A stretch of 64,000 bases of DNA from assembly GCA_016207275.1 (NCBI GenBank), contig JACQPY010000007.1:10265-74264 (forward strand), read 5' to 3'. Below the pieces are notes generated by a model. The model was not told where the DNA came from. It saw nothing but the letters and a program-made list of their open reading frames with translations, and searched no databases. This document shows positions 12,840 to 49,090 of the stretch, in pieces. A program made the translations under genes and the position numbers. The stretch's first letter is position 1. Every line of letters starts with the position of its first letter. This DNA comes from Candidatus Kerfeldbacteria bacterium. Its GTDB lineage: Bacteria; Patescibacteriota; Patescibacteriia; SBBC01.

Positions 12840-13358
12840 CTATCGCTCGTTGTCGTCCTGTTCTTCGTGGACGCGGACCGATTTGGCCCGCAGCTTGTCG
12901 GCCTTCGGCAGGACGACCGTCAAAATTCCATGCCTCAGCGTCGCCGTGACCTTTTCGCTCTTGACGTCAACCGGTAAAATGATTGAACGCGAAAATCCGC
13001 CCCAGTAGCACTCTTGGTAAAAGTAGTCTTGGGCCGGCACCTGCTGGTCACGGTGGCGAATCCCCCGAATCGTGACCATGTCGTTGTTGACGGTAATATC
13101 CAAGTCTTCAACCCGCACGCCAGCGACGGCGGACTGGACGACCACGGCCTCGTCAGTCTGGTAGACGTCAACGGCCAGCTGGCCTTCAAAGTTCTCGCCC
13201 AGCCAACGGTCGTCCCTCGGCTGCGTCGGCGGGTCGCTGGCTGGCGTTGCTGGGGAAATTCGACGTTCGGCCAAAACCGCACCGAAGAACGCGGCCGCCT
13301 CACCTGACGGCTGACGAACGGTCGGCGTACGTATTCCTTTATCTTCTTTCCGTGCCAT
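12840..13358 (-). CDS. Hsp20/alpha-crystallin small heat-shock protein
   Basis: ACD core LAVDVYQTDEAVVV...GILTVVLPK. The start was chosen at MARKEDKG (ATG at 13358). The longer ORF-track start is unlikely. Confidence 0.75.
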   Translation of the reverse strand: MARKEDKGIRTPTVRQPSGEAAAFFGAVLAERRISPATPASDPPTQPRDDRWLGENFEGQLAVDVYQTDEAVVVQSAVAGVRVEDLDITVNNDMVTIRGIRHRDQQVPAQDYFYQECYWGGFSRSIILPVDVKSEKVTATLRHGILTVVLPKADKLRAKSVRVHEEQDDNER

Positions 13359-13410
13359 ATCTTCAGTATACGAACTCTTCGGCAAACCAGCAACTAGTCG
13401 GTTCACTGAC

Positions 13411-13439
13411 TTGATTTTTCTGTTTCGATCAGCTAAAAT
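13411..13439 (+). promoter_or_regulatory. Near-consensus sigma70 promoter TTGATT-N17-TAAAAT on the plus strand, divergent from hsp20
   Basis: The -35 is at 13411-13416 and the -10 at 13434-13439. It points toward the tRNA-Glu locus. Confidence 0.45.
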
Positions 13440-13569
13440 CCGTTCTGCTCTACGGCCCATTGCCCGGCAAAGCCGGAAAGGAAAACGCCAGGTTTTTCCG
13501 GCCGCCACCTAGCGAGCCGTTCTCCACTCGGGCTAAAACCGCTAAACGTGAGCAACAAATCAAACGCTC

Positions 13570-13578
13570 TGGTAGAAT
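13570..13578 (+). promoter_or_regulatory. Extended -10 element TGgTAGAAT, about 18 nt upstream of the tRNA-Glu 5' fragment
   Basis: TGnTAGAAT at 13570-13578 looks like a tRNA promoter. It is positioned for the upstream partial copy, not for the intact tRNA. Confidence 0.35.
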
Positions 13579-13595
13579 ACAAAGAAGATTACACT

Positions 13596-13607
13596 ATGCC
13601 GCCATCG
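13596..13607 (+). repeat. 12-bp direct repeat atgccgccatcg, copy 1. It contains the first 10 nt of tRNA-Glu.
   Basis: Identical to 13946-13957, which overlaps the 5' end of the intact tRNA-Glu. It is followed by a GC-rich stretch that shares tctagtccg with the tRNA D-arm. Confidence 0.6.
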
Positions 13608-13696
13608 CCCGGCGAGGCCACGGCGGTAGCCGGGCAGGCCGGGTCCGGCAGTCCGGCGGAGCCGGACGTCGCCGGATCTAGTCCGCTCTCAAGAAT

Positions 13697-13972
13697 ATGC
13701 CATACTTTGTCTATGTATTAAGAAGTATCAAGACTGGCAGATTGTACTGTGGGAGCTGTGGTAATATCCAGGTTCGCTTGAAACAGCATAATGCGGGTCA
13801 AGTTGCTTCTACAAGACCGTACAGGCCATGGGAGCTCCTACGGAGCGAAGAATACACCACCAAATCGGAGGCACGAAAAAGAGAGTTACAGTTAAAAAAT
13901 TCTGGTGTTGCACGAAAGCAATTGAAGACAAACCCACAGCATTACATGCCGCCATCGTCTAGTCCGGTCTAG
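13697..13972 (+). CDS. GIY-YIG nuclease family protein (UPF0213/YhbQ-like, URI domain)
   Basis: MPYFVYVLRSIKTGRLYCGSCGNIQVRLKQHN has the GIY-x10-YIG and R/E/N core. Its 3' end reads through into the tRNA-Glu. Confidence 0.6.
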   Translation: MPYFVYVLRSIKTGRLYCGSCGNIQVRLKQHNAGQVASTRPYRPWELLRSEEYTTKSEARKRELQLKNSGVARKQLKTNPQHYMPPSSSPV

Positions 13973-14025
13973 GACGCCAGGTTTTCATCCTGGTAACAGG
14001 GGTTCGAATCCCCTTGGCGGTACCA
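13948..14025 (+). tRNA. tRNA-Glu (anticodon TTC), 78 nt including the encoded CCA
   Basis: Acceptor GCCGCCA/TGGCGGT, anticodon loop TTTTCAT, T-arm AGGGGTTCGAATCCCCT. Close to canonical bacterial tRNA-Glu. Confidence 0.85.
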
Positions 14026-14095
14026 ATCAGCTTTTTCCCGCCACAATAATCCAAAACTTCAAGGAGGGCGGGATCCCGCTCCGCGGGACAAGCTG

Positions 14096-14128
14096 AGAAC
14101 AGGGGTTCGACTCCCCTTGGGGCTACCA
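14096..14128 (+). other. Orphan tRNA 3'-end fragment (T-arm, acceptor 3' strand and CCA), a partial duplicate of the tRNA-Glu 3' end
   Basis: aacaggggttcgactccccttggggctacca versus tRNA-Glu aacaggggttcgaatccccttggcggtacca. No matching 5' acceptor, D or anticodon arm could be folded upstream. Confidence 0.5.
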
Positions 14129-14149
14129 CCCTGAACCAGTAACAAAAAA

Positions 14150-14172
14150 CAGGCGGCTTGCCCGTTTTTTGC
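14150..14172. terminator. Possible bidirectional terminator (A6-GC stem-T6)
   Basis: aaaaaacaggcggcttgcccgttttttg. The stem is short and imperfect. It lies after the tRNA cluster and before the converging 14188..14388 gene. Confidence 0.3.
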
Positions 14173-14187
14173 ATTTGCTTGTTTAGC

Positions 14188-14388
14188 CTACATCATGCCC
14201 GCGGCTTTCGCTACTTCGTCGGCGCTGTGGTAGGTCGCCTCGGGCACCTTGTCCATAAACATCTTTTTGTGTTCTTCGGGCACGTGCGACATCGTGTTGC
14301 ACGCTTCCCAAATGTCCTTCTTGGTGGCCGGGTAGGAAATGTGACTTTTAAGGTGCTCGGTCATCTCCTGCATGTTCATGTCGTCCAT
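14188..14388 (-). CDS. DUF2795-like small protein
   Basis: LKSHISYPATKKDIWEACNTMSHVPEEHKKMFMDKVPEATYHSADEVAKAAG fits the DUF2795 pattern (YPAtK...lPe..Y.s..eV). A GGAGG-type SD is upstream. Confidence 0.55.
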   Translation of the reverse strand: MDDMNMQEMTEHLKSHISYPATKKDIWEACNTMSHVPEEHKKMFMDKVPEATYHSADEVAKAAGMM

Positions 14389-18984: not shown

Positions 18985-19047
18985 TGCCTCTCCTCGCACG
19001 CGAGGAGAGGCATCCTCAAAAACGCCTCTCCTCTTCGAGGAGAGGCT
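18985..19047. repeat. Tandem GC-rich hairpins (GCCTCTCCTC-N4-GAGGAGAGGC, twice) at a gene end; a palindromic element family member or terminator
   Basis: gcctctcctcgcacgcgaggagaggc and gcctctcctcttcgaggagaggc sit directly after the stop at 18983. Confidence 0.6.
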
Positions 19048-19129
19048 CGGTGAGGAGGTGCTACAATACCACCATGACCATCCCGGCCATCGAGACCACC
19101 AGCGATGAGATTGCTTCAAAACTGCCCGT

Positions 19130-19693
19130 TCACATCATTCCTGCGTAGTTCGATCTCTTAAAATCTTCGTAGTGTGGCGAGTAGATTGACCAGGGGAAAA
19201 CCGCCTCACCCAGTTCAACAAAAAAATCAATGTTCTCTTTTTGCTTTGGATGCACGATCATTGCGGCAGTTTTGATGTTCTCTTTCCTCGCGCCCATCTG
19301 CAGTAAGTGATTCTTCGCCACATCTATGGTTTTTGATAAGACAACATCGTCATCAACCAGCAGCACCTTTTGCTCGCTACCGATTTGCTGAGCTAAAGGT
19401 TCATGAATAAATGGTTGAGAGAATAGGTAGTAAAGATCCTCAAGCGCGCTGTAGAGAAACCTGAAGCGTCTAAATTTTTCTGGCATTCTCGGAATTATTG
19501 TTGACAACCGACATTTGACGCTCATTGGGCTATATGGTACGCCGAGAACTTTGGCAAGGTGGGTTCCGACGAGATGACCGCCGTATTTTATTCCGACCAC
19601 GAGATCTGGTCGATACGCGCTCTGTTGTATCCGTTTTCCGAGCCTTGCTGACTTTTCTGCAATTTCCTGAACTGTCCAAAAAGACTTTGTCAT
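19130..19693 (-). CDS. Phosphoribosyltransferase-family protein
   Basis: PRTase PRPP-binding loop KVLLVDDDVVLSKT. Confidence 0.55.
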   Translation of the reverse strand: MTKSFWTVQEIAEKSARLGKRIQQSAYRPDLVVGIKYGGHLVGTHLAKVLGVPYSPMSVKCRLSTIIPRMPEKFRRFRFLYSALEDLYYLFSQPFIHEPLAQQIGSEQKVLLVDDDVVLSKTIDVAKNHLLQMGARKENIKTAAMIVHPKQKENIDFFVELGEAVFPWSIYSPHYEDFKRSNYAGMM

Positions 19694-19730
19694 GTCAGTA
19701 TTGTAGTGAAAAACATATCAATAGGGCAGT

Positions 19731-20765
19731 ATGACTATTCTAGCAATAGAAACTTCCTGTGACGAAACCTCGGCTGCGGTCATTAAAAGAGACGGCGCGA
19801 TTGCTCGAATCCGCTCAAACATCGTGGCCTCGCAAGTGAAGCTTCACGCCAAGACCGGCGGGGTTGTGCCGGAAGTCGCCGCGCGGGAGCACATCAAACC
19901 GATCATTCCCACCATTGAACGTGCCTTAGCCAAAGCCAAAACTACGGTGCACAACGTTGATGCCCTAGCCGTCACCCTTGGCCCAGGTCTGCACACGGCA
20001 CTTTCGGTTGGCGTGGAAACGGCCAAAGCGCTATCGTACACGCTCGGTCTGCCGCTCATGCCCATCAACCACCTGCACGGCCACATTGCCTCAAACTGGA
20101 ACGCTCGCGCGCCAAAACTTCCAGCCCTCTGCCTGATTGTCTCCGGCGGACACACTGAACTGGTGCTGATTGACCGACGGCGCCGTATCAAGTTACTCGG
20201 CGCCACCCGTGACGATGCAGCCGGCGAAGCCTTTGACAAAGTCGCCCAGCTCTTACGGCTCGGCTACCCGGGCGGGCCAATCATCAGCCAGCTCGCGCAA
20301 CGCGGCAATCCTCGGGCCTTTGACCTGCCGCGGCCAATGCTCGAACACAAAAACTTTGATTTCAGTTTTTCCGGATTGAAAACCGCAGTTCGGTATCTTA
20401 TTGAAAAGAGTCCCCTCCTGCCCGAGGAGGGGACGCGGCGAGGCCGCGGGGAGGTGGGAGACCTTTGCGCCTCATTCCAGCAAGCAATCGTCGATGTGCT
20501 CGTGGCAAAAACTGTTCGCGCGGCAAAACTACACAAGCCCAAAGAAGTGCTGCTGGCCGGCGGCGTGGCCGCAAATACAGAACTTCGGCGGCGGCTGGCG
20601 GGTGAGATCCATAAGCTTAGTTGGAAACCATCATACCACCAGCCGCCGCTTGCGCTTTGCACGGACAACGCCGGCATGATCGGGTTGGCGGCGGCATACT
20701 TCAAAATCCCAATCAAAGCAGACGCCTGGAAAACAGTGGATATCCGACCAACGGTTGTTGTATAA
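19731..20765 (+). CDS. tsaD: tRNA N6-adenosine threonylcarbamoyltransferase TsaD (Kae1/Gcp)
   Basis: MTILAIETSCDETSAAV, HLHGH, and a GGVAAN C-terminal. It contains an in-frame palindromic element at 20409-20459. Confidence 0.9.
   Translation: MTILAIETSCDETSAAVIKRDGAIARIRSNIVASQVKLHAKTGGVVPEVAAREHIKPIIPTIERALAKAKTTVHNVDALAVTLGPGLHTALSVGVETAKALSYTLGLPLMPINHLHGHIASNWNARAPKLPALCLIVSGGHTELVLIDRRRRIKLLGATRDDAAGEAFDKVAQLLRLGYPGGPIISQLAQRGNPRAFDLPRPMLEHKNFDFSFSGLKTAVRYLIEKSPLLPEEGTRRGRGEVGDLCASFQQAIVDVLVAKTVRAAKLHKPKEVLLAGGVAANTELRRRLAGEIHKLSWKPSYHQPPLALCTDNAGMIGLAAAYFKIPIKADAWKTVDIRPTVVV
20409..20459. repeat. Palindromic element inserted in-frame in tsaD (GTCCCCTCCTgcccgAGGAGGGGAC plus a GCGGcgagGCCGC hairpin and a GGGGAGGTGGGAG tail)
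   Basis: The 21-nt core cccctcctgcccgaggagggg differs by 1 nt from the intergenic copy at 26401-26422. It encodes SPLLPEEGTRRGRGEVG in a variable TsaD loop. Confidence 0.7.
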
Positions 20766-30210: not shown

Positions 30211-30232
30211 TCCCCTCCACAATTGTGGAGGG
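30211..30232. repeat. Perfect 22-nt palindrome CCCCTCCACAATTGTGGAGGGG (palindromic element family variant)
   Basis: The sequence equals its own reverse complement. It lies in the csoR-pilB intergenic region and is followed by a GTCC/GGAC hairpin. Confidence 0.6.
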
Positions 30233-30258
30233 GATGTCCGGAGGACAGGGGCGGTGAC

Positions 30259-48959: not shown

Positions 48960-48979
48960 ATACTCGGGTGTGAAACCTT

Positions 48980-49090
48980 CCCCGACTGGATCGGGGATTT
49001 CCCCCTCCGATGCTCCCCCCTTCCCTTTAGGGTGTCGACCCTTGCGGCTCCGCTAGGGTCCCGTCCGTTGGACACCCTGATCGTCGCCGC
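48980..49090. repeat. GC-rich structured intergenic element: C-rich run plus AGGGTGTCgac...GACACCCT inverted repeat
   Basis: Lies between the two GH57 genes. 8-bp inverted-repeat arms with a GTCGAC core. Same C-rich flavour as the palindromic element family. Confidence 0.4.

Follow-up and report, generated by a model that had tools for sequence, protein, structure and literature searches.

The window analysed here, a 64,000-nt stretch of contig JACQPY010000007.1 (positions 10,265-74,264, forward strand) of Candidatus Kerfeldbacteria bacterium GCA_016207275.1, contains an intact tRNA-Glu (UUC) gene with an encoded CCA end at 13948..14025 on the + strand, called by ARAGORN with anticodon ttc and recognized by the Rfam tRNA model RF00005 at 62.3 bits (threshold 29). 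Along the same strand the locus comprises, in order, a promoter-like site, the tRNA leader with tRNA positions 1-10, a GC-rich hairpin module, tRNA positions 11-23, an open reading frame (ORF) for a GIY-YIG nuclease, tRNA-Glu itself, a pseudo-tRNA and a terminator-like hairpin. A preliminary description of this DNA had recognized the GC-rich stretch, the 91-aa GIY-YIG ORF and the intact tRNA-Glu, and each of them is present where it had been drawn, the ORF according to Pfam and the tRNA according to ARAGORN and Rfam. Its view that the GIY-YIG gene lies within the 5' part of the tRNA-Glu gene, flanked by duplicated tRNA sequence, is likewise supported.

The 12-mer ATGCCGCCATCG, on which that description was built, is indeed found twice, at 13596-13607 and 13946-13957, while the longest match in reversed-flank controls is 6-7 nt, and both copies contain the start of tRNA-Glu. 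The repeated sequence extends past these 12 nt, with ATTACA[cta]TGCCGCCATCG at 13588-13607 corresponding to ATTACATGCCGCCATCG at 13941-13957, and the first part of the upstream copy (13588..13607, + strand) consists of the leader, with a 3-nt indel, and tRNA positions 1-10. After the GC-rich stretch the copy picks up again with TCTAGTCCGcTCT (13677..13689, + strand), which matches tRNA positions 11-23 in the D-arm at 12 of 13 nucleotides. The upstream copy comprises the leader and tRNA positions 1-23, with a hairpin module of 69 nt breaking it in two, rather than the 12-bp target-site duplication that had been proposed; in relatives its length ranges from 10 to 72 nt.

Upstream of this copy lie two promoter-like sites and the traces of what is probably an older event. 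The extended -10 element reported earlier is present as TGGTAGAAT at 13570..13578 (+ strand), precedes the 5' tRNA copy by 19 nt and was left uncalled by the consensus promoter scan because it has no -35 element; three related loci described below (L001, L003 and L005) carry promoter-like hexamers at distances of 15-28 nt before their own 5' copies. A second site, P1 (13411..13439, + strand; TTGATT, 17 nt, TAAAAT; 9 of 12 consensus matches), is located upstream of the oldest tRNA-derived scars and may be the original tRNA promoter. Those scars occupy 13452..13512 (+ strand), where CCATTG, similar to tRNA positions 5-10, is found with a small hairpin, CCCGGCAAAGCCGG, together with ACGCCAGGTTTT at 13485-13496, an exact match (12/12) to tRNA-Glu positions 27-38, and GCCGCCAcCTAG at 13501-13512, similar to tRNA positions 1-7 and a piece of the D-loop. 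Within the same stretch CCATTGCCCGGCAAAGCC at 13457-13474 is 83% identical to 13602-13619, and the whole would fit a decayed remnant of an earlier insertion. No further GIY-YIG genes or tRNA fragments were found elsewhere in the 64-kb window.

The nuclease gene (13697..13972, + strand) encodes a 91-aa protein matching Pfam PF01541 at 58 bits (cut-off 22.6, E=1.2e-15) over profile positions 2-71 of 78, with Y6, Y17, G19, R27 and E63 invariant in an alignment of five homologues. The gene shares 25 nt with the tRNA: the last eight codons and the stop lie inside the tRNA, and the frame ends at a TAG in the D-arm. The protein belongs to the GIY-YIG nuclease superfamily and, with one catalytic domain and no accessory domain, to its stand-alone Slx1-like/UPF0213 subgroup, the nearest solved structures being 1zg2 (8.6e-5), 1ywl (5.6e-4) and SLX1 6seh (1.1e-3). 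Among the Kerfeldbacteria-type loci, pN is 0.16-0.36 against a pS of 0.76-0.91, given as such rather than as dN/dS because synonymous sites are saturated; these values show purifying selection, and the catalytic residues are kept. No DNA-binding domain of the homing endonuclease type accompanies the catalytic domain of 70-80 aa, and a homing endonuclease identity, which the preliminary description had suggested checking, gains little from NCBIfam TIGR01453 (group I intron endonuclease), whose match is confined to residues 4-33 and scores 20.4 bits where 56 would be required. The window ORF matches neither PADLOC defence models nor PHROG families. Such ORFs are routinely annotated only as "GIY-YIG nuclease family protein", and the wider protein family comprises 5,422 cluster representatives at E 1e-3 or better.

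The hairpin module (13608..13676, + strand) is rich in GC. In its core, TCCGGC...GCCGGA closes a nested hairpin at 13644-13676 whose inner stem, GTCCGGC/GCCGGAC, spans 13651-13667; relative to L003 the window module carries a 20-nt insert containing GGCGGTAGCC, which resembles an acceptor 3' strand. The predicted RNA fold of 13598-13696 has an energy of -55.2 kcal/mol (z=-2.5), and the L003 equivalent reaches z=-4.0. Leader and hairpin are 96% identical to those of L003 over 69 nt, whereas ORF third positions are 39% identical. The module has no second copy in the 64-kb window of the kind that a dispersed repeat or MITE would leave. Introns and ribozymes gave no Rfam match on 13300-14300 at E up to 10, and none at the gathering threshold across the whole window, L001-L003 and 40 further related loci; the Rfam output otherwise consisted of tRNA, rRNA and weak chance matches, among which a sub-threshold Tymo_tRNA-like match of 20 bits was set aside. 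A self-splicing intron in the tRNA was rejected, these Rfam searches having shown no ribozyme core and a complete tRNA being present without splicing.

Downstream of tRNA-Glu, the copied tRNA 3' end noted previously is present at 14093-14128, 86% identical over 36 nt to 13990-14025, but it is not an orphan. It forms the 3' part of a hairpin-bearing pseudo-tRNA (14040..14128, + strand), recognizable from a sub-threshold Rfam tRNA alignment, the 36-nt copy and the hairpin, in which a decayed 5' part (14040-14066) is followed by a GC hairpin in place of the anticodon arm (GCGGGATCCCGC at 14068-14079, TCCCGCTCCGCGGGA at 14074-14088) and then by the T-arm, acceptor 3' strand and CCA (14100-14128). 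A second bona fide tRNA at 14040-14128, an outcome that the preliminary description had left to a covariance check, was rejected, since the tRNA model aligns to 14040-14124 at only 18.9 bits (threshold 29) with several broken pairs and ARAGORN is negative; the fold of 14040-14128 is no better than that of shuffled sequences (z=-0.67). The fragment had also been taken for an integrase-type attR, which the data do not support. Pfam finds no integrase domain in ORFs of the stretch or its flanks, only 67 nt lie between tRNA-Glu and position 14093, where the copied 3' end begins, and the fragment carries a TCC...GGA hairpin; its design is that of the pseudo-tRNAs found downstream of GIY-YIG ORFs in relatives of class B (below), and this second hairpin-bearing pseudo-tRNA of the window has no ORF. 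An intrinsic-terminator-like hairpin with a T-run (14143..14171, + strand) follows the pseudo-tRNA 3' part. That the terminator stands behind the fragment and not behind the functional tRNA makes it plausible that the fragment once ended a tRNA gene and was displaced. The two hairpin modules of the window are 78% complementary over 23 nt, both being GC-rich palindromes.

The layout of the window is repeated in L001/L004, L003 and L005, whose ORFs are 58-69% identical and whose flanks are non-syntenic; outside the module itself, no synteny was found among the four Kerfeldbacteria-type loci. Through all of this divergence the tRNA 5' copy stays identical to its tRNA despite saturated synonymous sites: in L003 and in L001 the copy follows the sequence of the tRNA at that locus, and L003 has GCCACCATCG at both places. 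That the layout is kept in three other loci although the ORF synonymous sites are saturated argues that these are maintained parts and not fresh scars. The same saturation suggests a considerable age for all four Kerfeldbacteria-type copies, and a domesticated gene would be compatible with it as well.

A survey of related GIY-YIG loci yielded 77 loci from about eight phyla, with the window counted as a 78th for hairpins. The search was built on the three closest homologues, the five-homologue alignment being too diverse, and because it relied on two peptide patterns it samples only one subfamily. A tRNA gene on the same strand lies within 200 nt in 54 of the 77 loci (0.6% expected, P about 4e-100), against a nearby opposite-strand tRNA in only one, and most of the loci contain a partial tRNA copy. 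Two mirrored layouts recur. Class A, to which the window belongs, begins with an exact tRNA copy from about position 1 (10-72 nt) and a hairpin, after which come a further piece of tRNA, the ORF and the complete tRNA. Over 10-42 nt the 5' copy does not differ from the regenerated tRNA, and most class A relatives continue the tRNA copy beyond the hairpin, as the window does. Class B has the full tRNA, the ORF and a pseudo-tRNA in which a hairpin replaces the anticodon arm (or T-arm).

Of the 78 loci, 57 have a TCCnnn...nnnGGA hairpin close to the ORF. Its density is 1.58 per kb near the ORF versus 0.29 per kb far from it, and it always lies at the ORF end that is not bounded by the functional tRNA. 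Its commonest form is TCCCGAT-loop-ATCGGGA, and its inner stem covaries (GAT/ATC, GAC/GTC, GCC/GGC); mismatches, counted for an asymmetry between RNA and DNA level, comprise seven G.T versus four A.C. Many of the ORFs lack a stop codon of their own and read into the tRNA.

At identities of at least 62%, ORF clusters follow tRNA isotype and not host taxonomy: the Leu-CAA cluster unites Bacteroidota and Patescibacteria, and the Cys-GCA cluster Yanofskybacteria and Saccharibacteria, although most loci come from metagenome-assembled genomes and such sharing across phyla could partly reflect binning errors. Tandem arrays were found at 11 loci. The isolate Perlabentimonas gracilis M08_MB has 3.1 units in its genome, each 422 bp long and 98% identical to one another; the native upstream flank stands before the first tRNA, and a different terminator comes after the last unit. 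At the other extreme, broken ORFs in five loci (L011, L016, L032, L049 and L073) indicate decay. Occurrence is patchy, with an adjacent GIY-YIG gene in only 3 of 120 metagenomic tRNA-Glu loci sharing the anticodon arm and bare tRNA-Glu genes exemplified by L107, L126 and L200. In L156 the acceptor of the upstream copy reads GGCCCTA and that of the functional tRNA GCCGCTA, as expected if one of the two sequences arrived with the element. One metagenome scan with an anticodon-arm pattern, which returned mostly unrelated bacteria, gave no empty site in a close relative, and no locus was found to be filled in one genome and empty in another closely related to it. Viral contigs contained no close relatives, and phage and plasmid records held two and four distant matches only, so no transfer vector is evident.

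The observed anatomy of these loci, their recurrence, the conservation of the hairpin, purifying selection on the ORF, the restriction of ORF lineages to single isotypes, the arrays and the patchy occurrence are best accommodated by a minimal selfish element, consisting of a GIY-YIG nuclease gene, a hairpin and a tRNA segment that regenerates an intact tRNA, a reading of the locus to which we assign a probability of roughly 0.6. The typical element would combine an ~85-aa single-domain GIY-YIG gene, a GC-rich TCC...GGA hairpin and a segment of the host tRNA, and on the best reading the window holds one member of this family plus extra decayed copies. The presence of the same package in tRNA genes of many phyla suggests a family of small selfish elements that seems not to have been described before; the literature searched, in which most subscription journals are not represented, yielded no account of a small GIY-YIG gene that combines a hairpin with partial copies of a tRNA. 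More tentatively, and at less than even odds, these loci may define a new class of 330-420-bp mobile elements, each bound to one isotype and rebuilding its tRNA, so that the site could be used again and arrays could grow like those of cassettes, which would use the tRNA as a homology arm across species and phyla and the hairpin as the structure-specific substrate of the nuclease.

Both mobility and mechanism we infer from sequence. In the proposed course of events, one end of the element would have its tRNA made whole again by the tRNA segment, and the displaced part of the resident gene would stay beside the hairpin at the other end as a pseudo-tRNA. The unit would behave selfishly, spreading or duplicating by recombination within the tRNA sequence, whose conservation would make it a portable homology arm. 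Regeneration of the target instead of its destruction would explain the arrays, though unequal crossing-over alone could yield them too. The ORF would probably be transcribed from the tRNA promoter within the tRNA precursor. More speculatively, the nuclease might make the initiating break at the hairpin, in a structure-specific, Slx1-like manner, or in cognate tRNA genes; alternatively, the hairpin might work at the RNA level, stabilizing or processing the ORF mRNA at the end that lacks tRNA processing. Because the tRNA sequence survives insertion, the element does not gain the self-immunity on which homing endonucleases usually rely, and because the protein has no DNA-binding domain, sequence-specific targeting is left unexplained.

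Several features that the selfish element accounts for would also be expected of a host gene. Long persistence under purifying selection in the Kerfeldbacteria-type loci, a hairpin more conserved than the ORF and always placed at the ORF end away from the functional tRNA, and the many stopless ORFs that run into the tRNA and are hence coupled to its precursor would all suit a tRNA-linked housekeeping or regulatory factor co-transcribed with tRNAs, for instance in tRNA-gene maintenance or RNA processing, with the pseudo-tRNA and hairpin serving in cis, as RNA, to regulate how the mRNA is processed, stabilized or translated. A prokaryotic Slx1-like domain fused to a TrmH-like tRNA methyltransferase, for which a role in RNA metabolism has been suggested (Dunin-Horkawicz et al. 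2006, PMC1564403), leans the same way. Host function is nevertheless unlikely in view of an occurrence as patchy as 3 of 120 tRNA-Glu loci, of decayed copies at some loci and 98%-identity tandem arrays at another, and of ORF lineages that keep to one isotype each yet are scattered over phyla; tRNA duplications of variable partial length are, moreover, a hallmark of insertion or recombination and not of an operon. We consider it rather less probable still that the nuclease is a toxin directed at the cognate tRNA or its gene and restrained by the pseudo-tRNA as a mimic with an uncleavable hairpin, in the manner of a type III toxin-antitoxin or defence system. ToxIN-type loci contain tandem repeats of RNA plus ORF, which the tandem units here recall; the ORF lineages are isotype-specific, and class B pseudo-tRNAs keep a cloverleaf-like outline while losing the anticodon arm, some of them being called as tRNAs by ARAGORN. 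Yet the 10-35 nt of tRNA 5' sequence plus hairpin that make up many class A loci cannot mimic a tRNA, relatives of the PADLOC-negative window ORF show only weak matches (PDC-S14, UzuA and HEase), and all characterized GIY-YIG enzymes, to our knowledge, cut DNA.

The preliminary description had favoured one insertion event, recent and transposon-like, in which ~340 bp landed and duplicated a 12-bp target site, next to an unrelated older attR remnant and a low-GC island. It rightly recorded that the 12-mer is repeated exactly and that a tRNA 3' fragment is present, but the repeat exceeds 12 nt, contains an indel and resumes after the hairpin, and its length varies across the family; neither a transposase nor an integrase domain was found by Pfam in the ORFs of the stretch; and the fragment bears the family type of hairpin. 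Relatives with the same arrangement were named there as what would refute it, and close relatives do have that arrangement, three diverged loci with pS values of 0.76-0.91 and, in L003, a nearly identical leader and hairpin. Nor is 14.2-16.8 kb compositionally distinct, its GC of 0.554 lying at about the 11th percentile of the window (mean 0.586, sd 0.020). A Pfam scan of the ORFs on both sides of the tRNA gives Hsp20, DUF2795, TrmB or no domain. A recent insertion of this kind is accordingly very improbable. Least credible of all is neutral decay of an ancestral tandem tRNA duplication that trapped an unrelated small ORF by chance: tandem tRNA genes are common and can decay to partial copies, but chance would not produce an ORF-tRNA association of such significance across many isotypes and phyla, a hairpin motif common to the loci or a 5' copy held identical to its tRNA.

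The selfish element proposed here shares traits with several known systems. Phage T4 SegB is a free-standing GIY-YIG homing endonuclease whose gene lies in the T4 tRNA gene cluster (PMC2330249). Both kinds of GIY-YIG gene sit among or beside tRNA genes, with patchy distribution, decayed copies and a lineage bound to one target gene. SegB-type enzymes have a DNA-binding region besides the nuclease, whereas the element encodes a catalytic domain alone; the SegB type replaces its target by a resistant allele, whereas the element duplicates and regenerates the tRNA, includes a conserved hairpin in its unit and is chromosomal, its close relatives not being found in phages. With homing endonuclease genes in general the element has in common a patchy presence and a cycle of invasion and decay, visible in the 3 of 120 loci and the broken ORFs, but not immunity of the carrier allele, since an intact tRNA stands beside the ORF and arrays show that the site stays usable.

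The Slx1-like group is the minimal form of the GIY-YIG domain (Dunin-Horkawicz et al. 2006, PMC1564403). The same single-domain architecture is found in the UPF0213/Slx1-like proteins BH0048 (1zg2), EF2693 (1ywl), Escherichia coli YhbQ and Bacillus subtilis YazA, and the papers searched describe neither a function nor a genomic association for the stand-alone UPF0213 group. We know of no tRNA gene adjacent to yhbQ or yazA, in contrast to the subfamily described here, which sits inside tRNA genes and is accompanied there by a hairpin.

Like integrase-borne islands and prophages, the element is found in a tRNA gene that a carried tRNA segment rebuilds, with a partial tRNA copy at the other junction and arrays that repeated insertion at the same site would give. 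It differs in having no tyrosine or serine recombinase and a length of only about 330-420 bp, in duplicating either the 5' part (class A, including the window) or the 3' part (class B) over a variable length, and in marking its non-functional junction with the hairpin. Integron cassettes, similarly, combine one ORF with one imperfect palindromic hairpin conserved in structure over sequence, and stand head to tail at a fixed site. Cassettes are, however, moved by a separate IntI at attI, whereas each unit here encodes its own GIY-YIG protein and the site is a tRNA gene; no integrase was seen in the loci read.

If the proposed reading is correct, it provides a biological context for a large protein family of no described function (the 5,422 cluster representatives), and tRNA genes of Candidate Phyla Radiation bacteria, Bacteroidota and others would be colonized by elements far below island size. 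An ~85-aa nuclease bound to one tRNA gene and one hairpin would also offer a compact model for target choice without a DNA-binding domain. In annotation, the pseudo-tRNAs are a source of error, several of them being called by ARAGORN with wrong or impossible anticodons.

Genes for structured RNAs other than tRNA are also affected. In Candidate Phyla Radiation bacteria, rRNA genes reportedly contain insertions that encode nucleases (Brown et al. 2015). One homologue, P0005 (47% identical), is encoded at L002 by an insertion that interrupts a 23S rRNA gene and is flanked by hairpins. This insertion lies within the rRNA and is presumably removed at the RNA level, whereas the tRNA loci regenerate the gene by duplication. 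The case of P0005 indicates that the same protein family invades structured-RNA genes.

The only tRNA gene that ARAGORN finds in the 64-kb window is a tRNA-Glu (anticodon ttc; 13948-14025; Rfam score 62.3 bits), and a GIY-YIG ORF of 91 aa (13697-13972; Pfam GIY-YIG E=1.2e-15) overlaps its 5' end, both in place as the preliminary description had them. The 12-mer reported there, ATGCCGCCATCG, is likewise present twice, at 13596-13607 and 13946-13957. It belongs to a longer upstream repeat, ATTACA[cta]TGCCGCCATCG at 13588-13607 versus ATTACATGCCGCCATCG at 13941-13957, and this repeat therefore takes in tRNA leader sequence. Past a GC-rich stretch the tRNA sequence picks up again with TCTAGTCCGcTCT (13677-13689, tRNA positions 11-23), and further pieces of tRNA-Glu lie upstream at 13457-13474, 13485-13496 (a 12/12 match to positions 27-38) and 13501-13512. 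On the other side, the tRNA 3' end (13990-14025) recurs at 14093-14128 with 86% identity over 36 nt. As the longest matches in reversed-flank controls reach just 6-7 nt, these repeats are beyond chance. The ORF has no stop codon of its own, and its translation continues 22 nt into the tRNA, as far as a TAG in the D-arm. A low-GC island claimed at 14.2-16.8 kb is weak (GC 0.554 versus 0.586 +/- 0.020 for the window); the lowest GC in the profiled 9-22 kb region is found at 19000-19800 (0.445-0.487), below that of this stretch.

The window ORF is identical to an annotated GIY-YIG nuclease protein of a Candidatus Kerfeldbacteria MAG, and three relatives show the same order of parts: a Kerfeldbacteria locus on an 857-kb contig (L001/L004; ORF 69% identical to the window ORF), a second Kerfeldbacteria locus (L005; 67%) and a metagenome contig (L003; 58%). 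In each, a promoter-like site lies 15-28 nt 5' of a 5' tRNA copy spanning tRNA positions 1-10 or 1-13, followed by a hairpin closed by TCCGGC...GCCGGA, and the ORF terminates at the D-arm TAG of tRNA-Glu. An extra D-arm piece follows the hairpin in L001 and L003 and is missing in L005; a fragment with T-arm, acceptor and CCA lies 23-140 nt downstream in L001 and L005, the corresponding part of L003 falling outside view beyond the contig edge. No flanking genes common to these loci and the window were found. Synonymous differences between the ORFs are saturated (pS 0.76-0.91) and nonsynonymous differences are low (pN 0.16-0.36), indicating old copies and purifying selection on the protein. Between the window and L003 the non-coding leader keeps 96% identity across 69 aligned nt, versus 39% at ORF third positions, and the 5' copy matches the tRNA of its own locus (GCCACCATCG twice in L003, GCCGCCATCG twice in the window). 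A conserved leader and a copy that tracks its own tRNA are not the behaviour of neutral insertion scars.

The leader region also holds a 41-codon upstream ORF (MPPSPGEA...; 13596-13721), which starts at the ATG of the 12-mer, spans the hairpin module and runs, in a different frame, over the start of the GIY-YIG ORF. L003 encodes a similar peptide, PPSPGEAGSGSPA, a likeness that probably reflects DNA conservation only. Relative to L003, the window module carries a 20-nt insert containing ACGGCGGTAGCC (13619-13632), which resembles the 3' acceptor strand of the tRNA together with its CCA (TGGCGGTACCA) and, in the predicted fold, is paired to the 5' copy GCCGCC.

Scanning one genome per species with a three-protein alignment yielded 77 loci, mostly in MAGs, which represent one subfamily retrieved via two peptide patterns. 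Their hosts are Patescibacteria (of many lineages), Bacteroidota, Ignavibacteria, Kiritimatiellae, Lentisphaerae, Gammaproteobacteria, Acidobacteria, Chloroflexia and Actinomycetes. Of the 77 loci, 54 have a same-strand tRNA no more than 200 nt from the ORF, where the background tRNA density of those loci predicts about 0.6% (P ~4e-100); among the adjoining tRNAs are those for Glu, Ser, Leu, Met, Tyr, Cys, Gly, Ala, Gln, Asn, Asp, Arg and Val. The parts recur in two arrangements that mirror each other. In class A, to which the window belongs (about 30 loci), an exact tRNA copy of 10-72 nt from about position 1 comes first, followed by a GC-rich hairpin, a few nt more of that tRNA and, after 5-15 nt, the ATG and ORF and then the full tRNA, often with the stop codon within the tRNA. 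Class B (about 20 loci) consists of a full tRNA, 0-100 nt, the ORF and then a diverged tRNA copy in which a hairpin replaces the anticodon arm (the T-arm in two loci); the tRNA terminator is often duplicated as well. ARAGORN labels such hairpin pseudo-tRNAs tRNA-Ala, tRNA-Tyr or tRNA-??? with a 4-base anticodon (L016, L017, L033, L034 and L041), so spurious tRNA genes are likely near these ORFs in automated annotation.

A stem closing TCC...GGA is a signature of this GIY-YIG/tRNA family: 57 of 78 loci (the window being the 78th) have one close to the ORF, where the density is 1.58 per kb versus 0.29 per kb farther out in the flanks. TCCCGAT-loop-ATCGGGA is the most frequent form; pairing is preserved in the variants TCCCGAC/GTCGGGA, TCCCGCC/GGCGGGA, TCCGCCAG/CTGGCGGA and, in the Kerfeldbacteria loci, TCCGGC/GCCGGA. 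Neither the hairpin nor the pseudo-tRNAs are covered by any Rfam family. One family-type hairpin in the window lies 5' of the ORF (13644-13676); another, TCCCGCTCCGCGGGA (14074-14088), sits exactly at the anticodon-arm place of a weak tRNA-like alignment at 14040-14124. On this basis the 3' fragment, which the preliminary description read as an orphan attR, exists as described but is the 3' part of a class-B-style pseudo-tRNA after ORF loss. The intrinsic terminator (14143-14171) stands behind this pseudo-tRNA and not behind the functional tRNA, an order to be expected had the resident gene's 3' end been displaced to become this fragment. The window holds further TCC...GGA-closed hairpins, TCCCCTCCACAATTGTGGAGGGGA (a perfect 24-nt palindrome, 30211-30234) and TCCCCGACTGGATCGGGGA (48979-48997), with no GIY-YIG or tRNA sequence near them.

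ORF clusters (>=62% identity) track tRNA isotype and not host taxonomy: a Leu-CAA cluster spans Bacteroidia, Saprospiraceae and one Patescibacteria MAG, a Cys-GCA cluster Yanofskybacteria and Saccharibacteria, and a Tyr-GTA cluster Gammaproteobacteria and one unclassified bacterium. Two or three tandem ORF copies are present in 11 loci, and several loci have broken ORFs. In the isolate Perlabentimonas gracilis strain M08_MB (NZ_JAANIG010000009.1; L041:2878-4175), a good experimental system, 3.1 units of 422 bp with 98% identity lie directly 3' of a tRNA-Met, each made up of tRNA 3' part, terminator, GIY-YIG ORF and hairpin pseudo-tRNA. The array opens with the native upstream flank and tRNA-Met positions 1-44, runs through three repeats of positions 45-75, terminator, promoter-like stretch, ORF, pseudo 5' part and hairpin, and closes with positions 45-75 and a different, native terminator. 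This order places the hairpin at whichever element end abuts the displaced native tRNA part, with the functional tRNA rebuilt at the opposite end; class A is the mirror image.

Among 120 metagenomic tRNA-Glu loci with the window's anticodon arm, only three (L156, L158 and L196) have an adjacent GIY-YIG; in others, L107, L126 and L200 for example, the tRNA is immediately preceded by AT-rich, promoter-like sequence. L156 (JGI contig Ga0209542_10003747) reads GGCCCTA in the acceptor of its upstream copy versus GCCGCTA in the functional tRNA, and at least four TCCCGA-type hairpins interrupt its downstream pseudo-tRNA, at the D-arm/anticodon-stem junction, anticodon loop and T-loop. That pseudo-tRNA terminates in GTGGGGCTACCA, as does the window fragment, and a perfect 14-bp inverted repeat, AACCCATAAACCAT/ATGGTTTATGGGTT, brackets the functional tRNA-Glu (L156:80-790). 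L113 (JGI contig Ga0315287_10886222, 160-235), a tRNA-Glu with the window's D-loop and without the ORF, shows 10 nt duplicated from its own 5' end (GGCGCTATCG) about 60 nt upstream, pairing with an inverted copy, CGATAGCGC, 20 nt on; this may be the solo scar of a lost element.

The anatomy and its conservation are thus demonstrated; we infer that the unit is a selfish element residing in tRNA genes, with a tRNA segment that would rebuild the gene on integration. Recombination within tRNA sequence, the proposed route, would account for duplication of either the 5' or the 3' part, for the variable length of the duplicate, for the agreement of each copy with its local tRNA and for a site that stays usable and so lets arrays build up. 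Serial accretion is what the window itself suggests: a decayed unit (13452-13512), an intact class A unit (13588-13972), the functional tRNA behind it and a class-B-type remnant without an ORF (14040-14128). The ORF would presumably be transcribed from the tRNA promoter, and RNase P cleavage at the tRNA 5' end is predicted to leave its message without a stop codon. The nuclease may cut the hairpin (structure-specific, Slx1-like), the cognate tRNA gene or else RNA. Homing in the classical sense is a misfit, since the target is not destroyed.

The single insertion event first proposed, with a 12-bp target-site duplication and an integrase-type attR, is contradicted by the layout shared with relatives, the 10-72 nt range of copy length and the family-type hairpin in the fragment. 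Neutral decay of tandem tRNA genes is at odds with the strength of the tRNA association and with a hairpin common to 57 of 78 loci. A host function, with pseudo-tRNA and hairpin forming a cis-acting RNA element, seems unlikely, and a toxin with a tRNA-mimic decoy somewhat less likely still.

Full-text literature searches, and the GIY-YIG phylogenomics paper (PMC1564403), yielded no description of this architecture (small GIY-YIG gene, partial tRNA copies and hairpin). The nearest described systems are T4 SegB in the tRNA cluster (PMC2330249), integrase-type tRNA att sites, integron cassettes and the rRNA insertions of Candidate Phyla Radiation bacteria. Selfish nuclease genes within tRNA genes being a kind already known, we file the present architecture as a variant, with a real chance of its being a new class of minimal mobile element.

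The window protein consists of the GIY-YIG catalytic domain alone, with Y6, Y17, G19, R27 and E63 conserved, whose nearest structures are UPF0213 (1zg2 and 1ywl) and also SLX1. It contains no DNA-binding domain, fails the group I intron endonuclease model and matches no PADLOC or PHROG family. The family comprises 5,422 cluster representatives at E <=1e-3 and 387 at <=1e-10. Some longer homologues (P0006, P0007, P0012 and P0027; 170-214 aa) contain two GIY-YIG stretches and probably arose by read-through or fusion of tandem units. Another, P0005 (81 aa, 47% identical to the window ORF), lies inside a 23S rRNA gene (L002:1128-1417, ENA contig k141_226734), so rRNA genes too are occupied by this protein family; a 19-nt inverted repeat, CCCAGCCTTTAAATCATTC/GAATGATTTAATGGCTGGG, borders the insertion on both sides, and 18/19 of its positions are paired.
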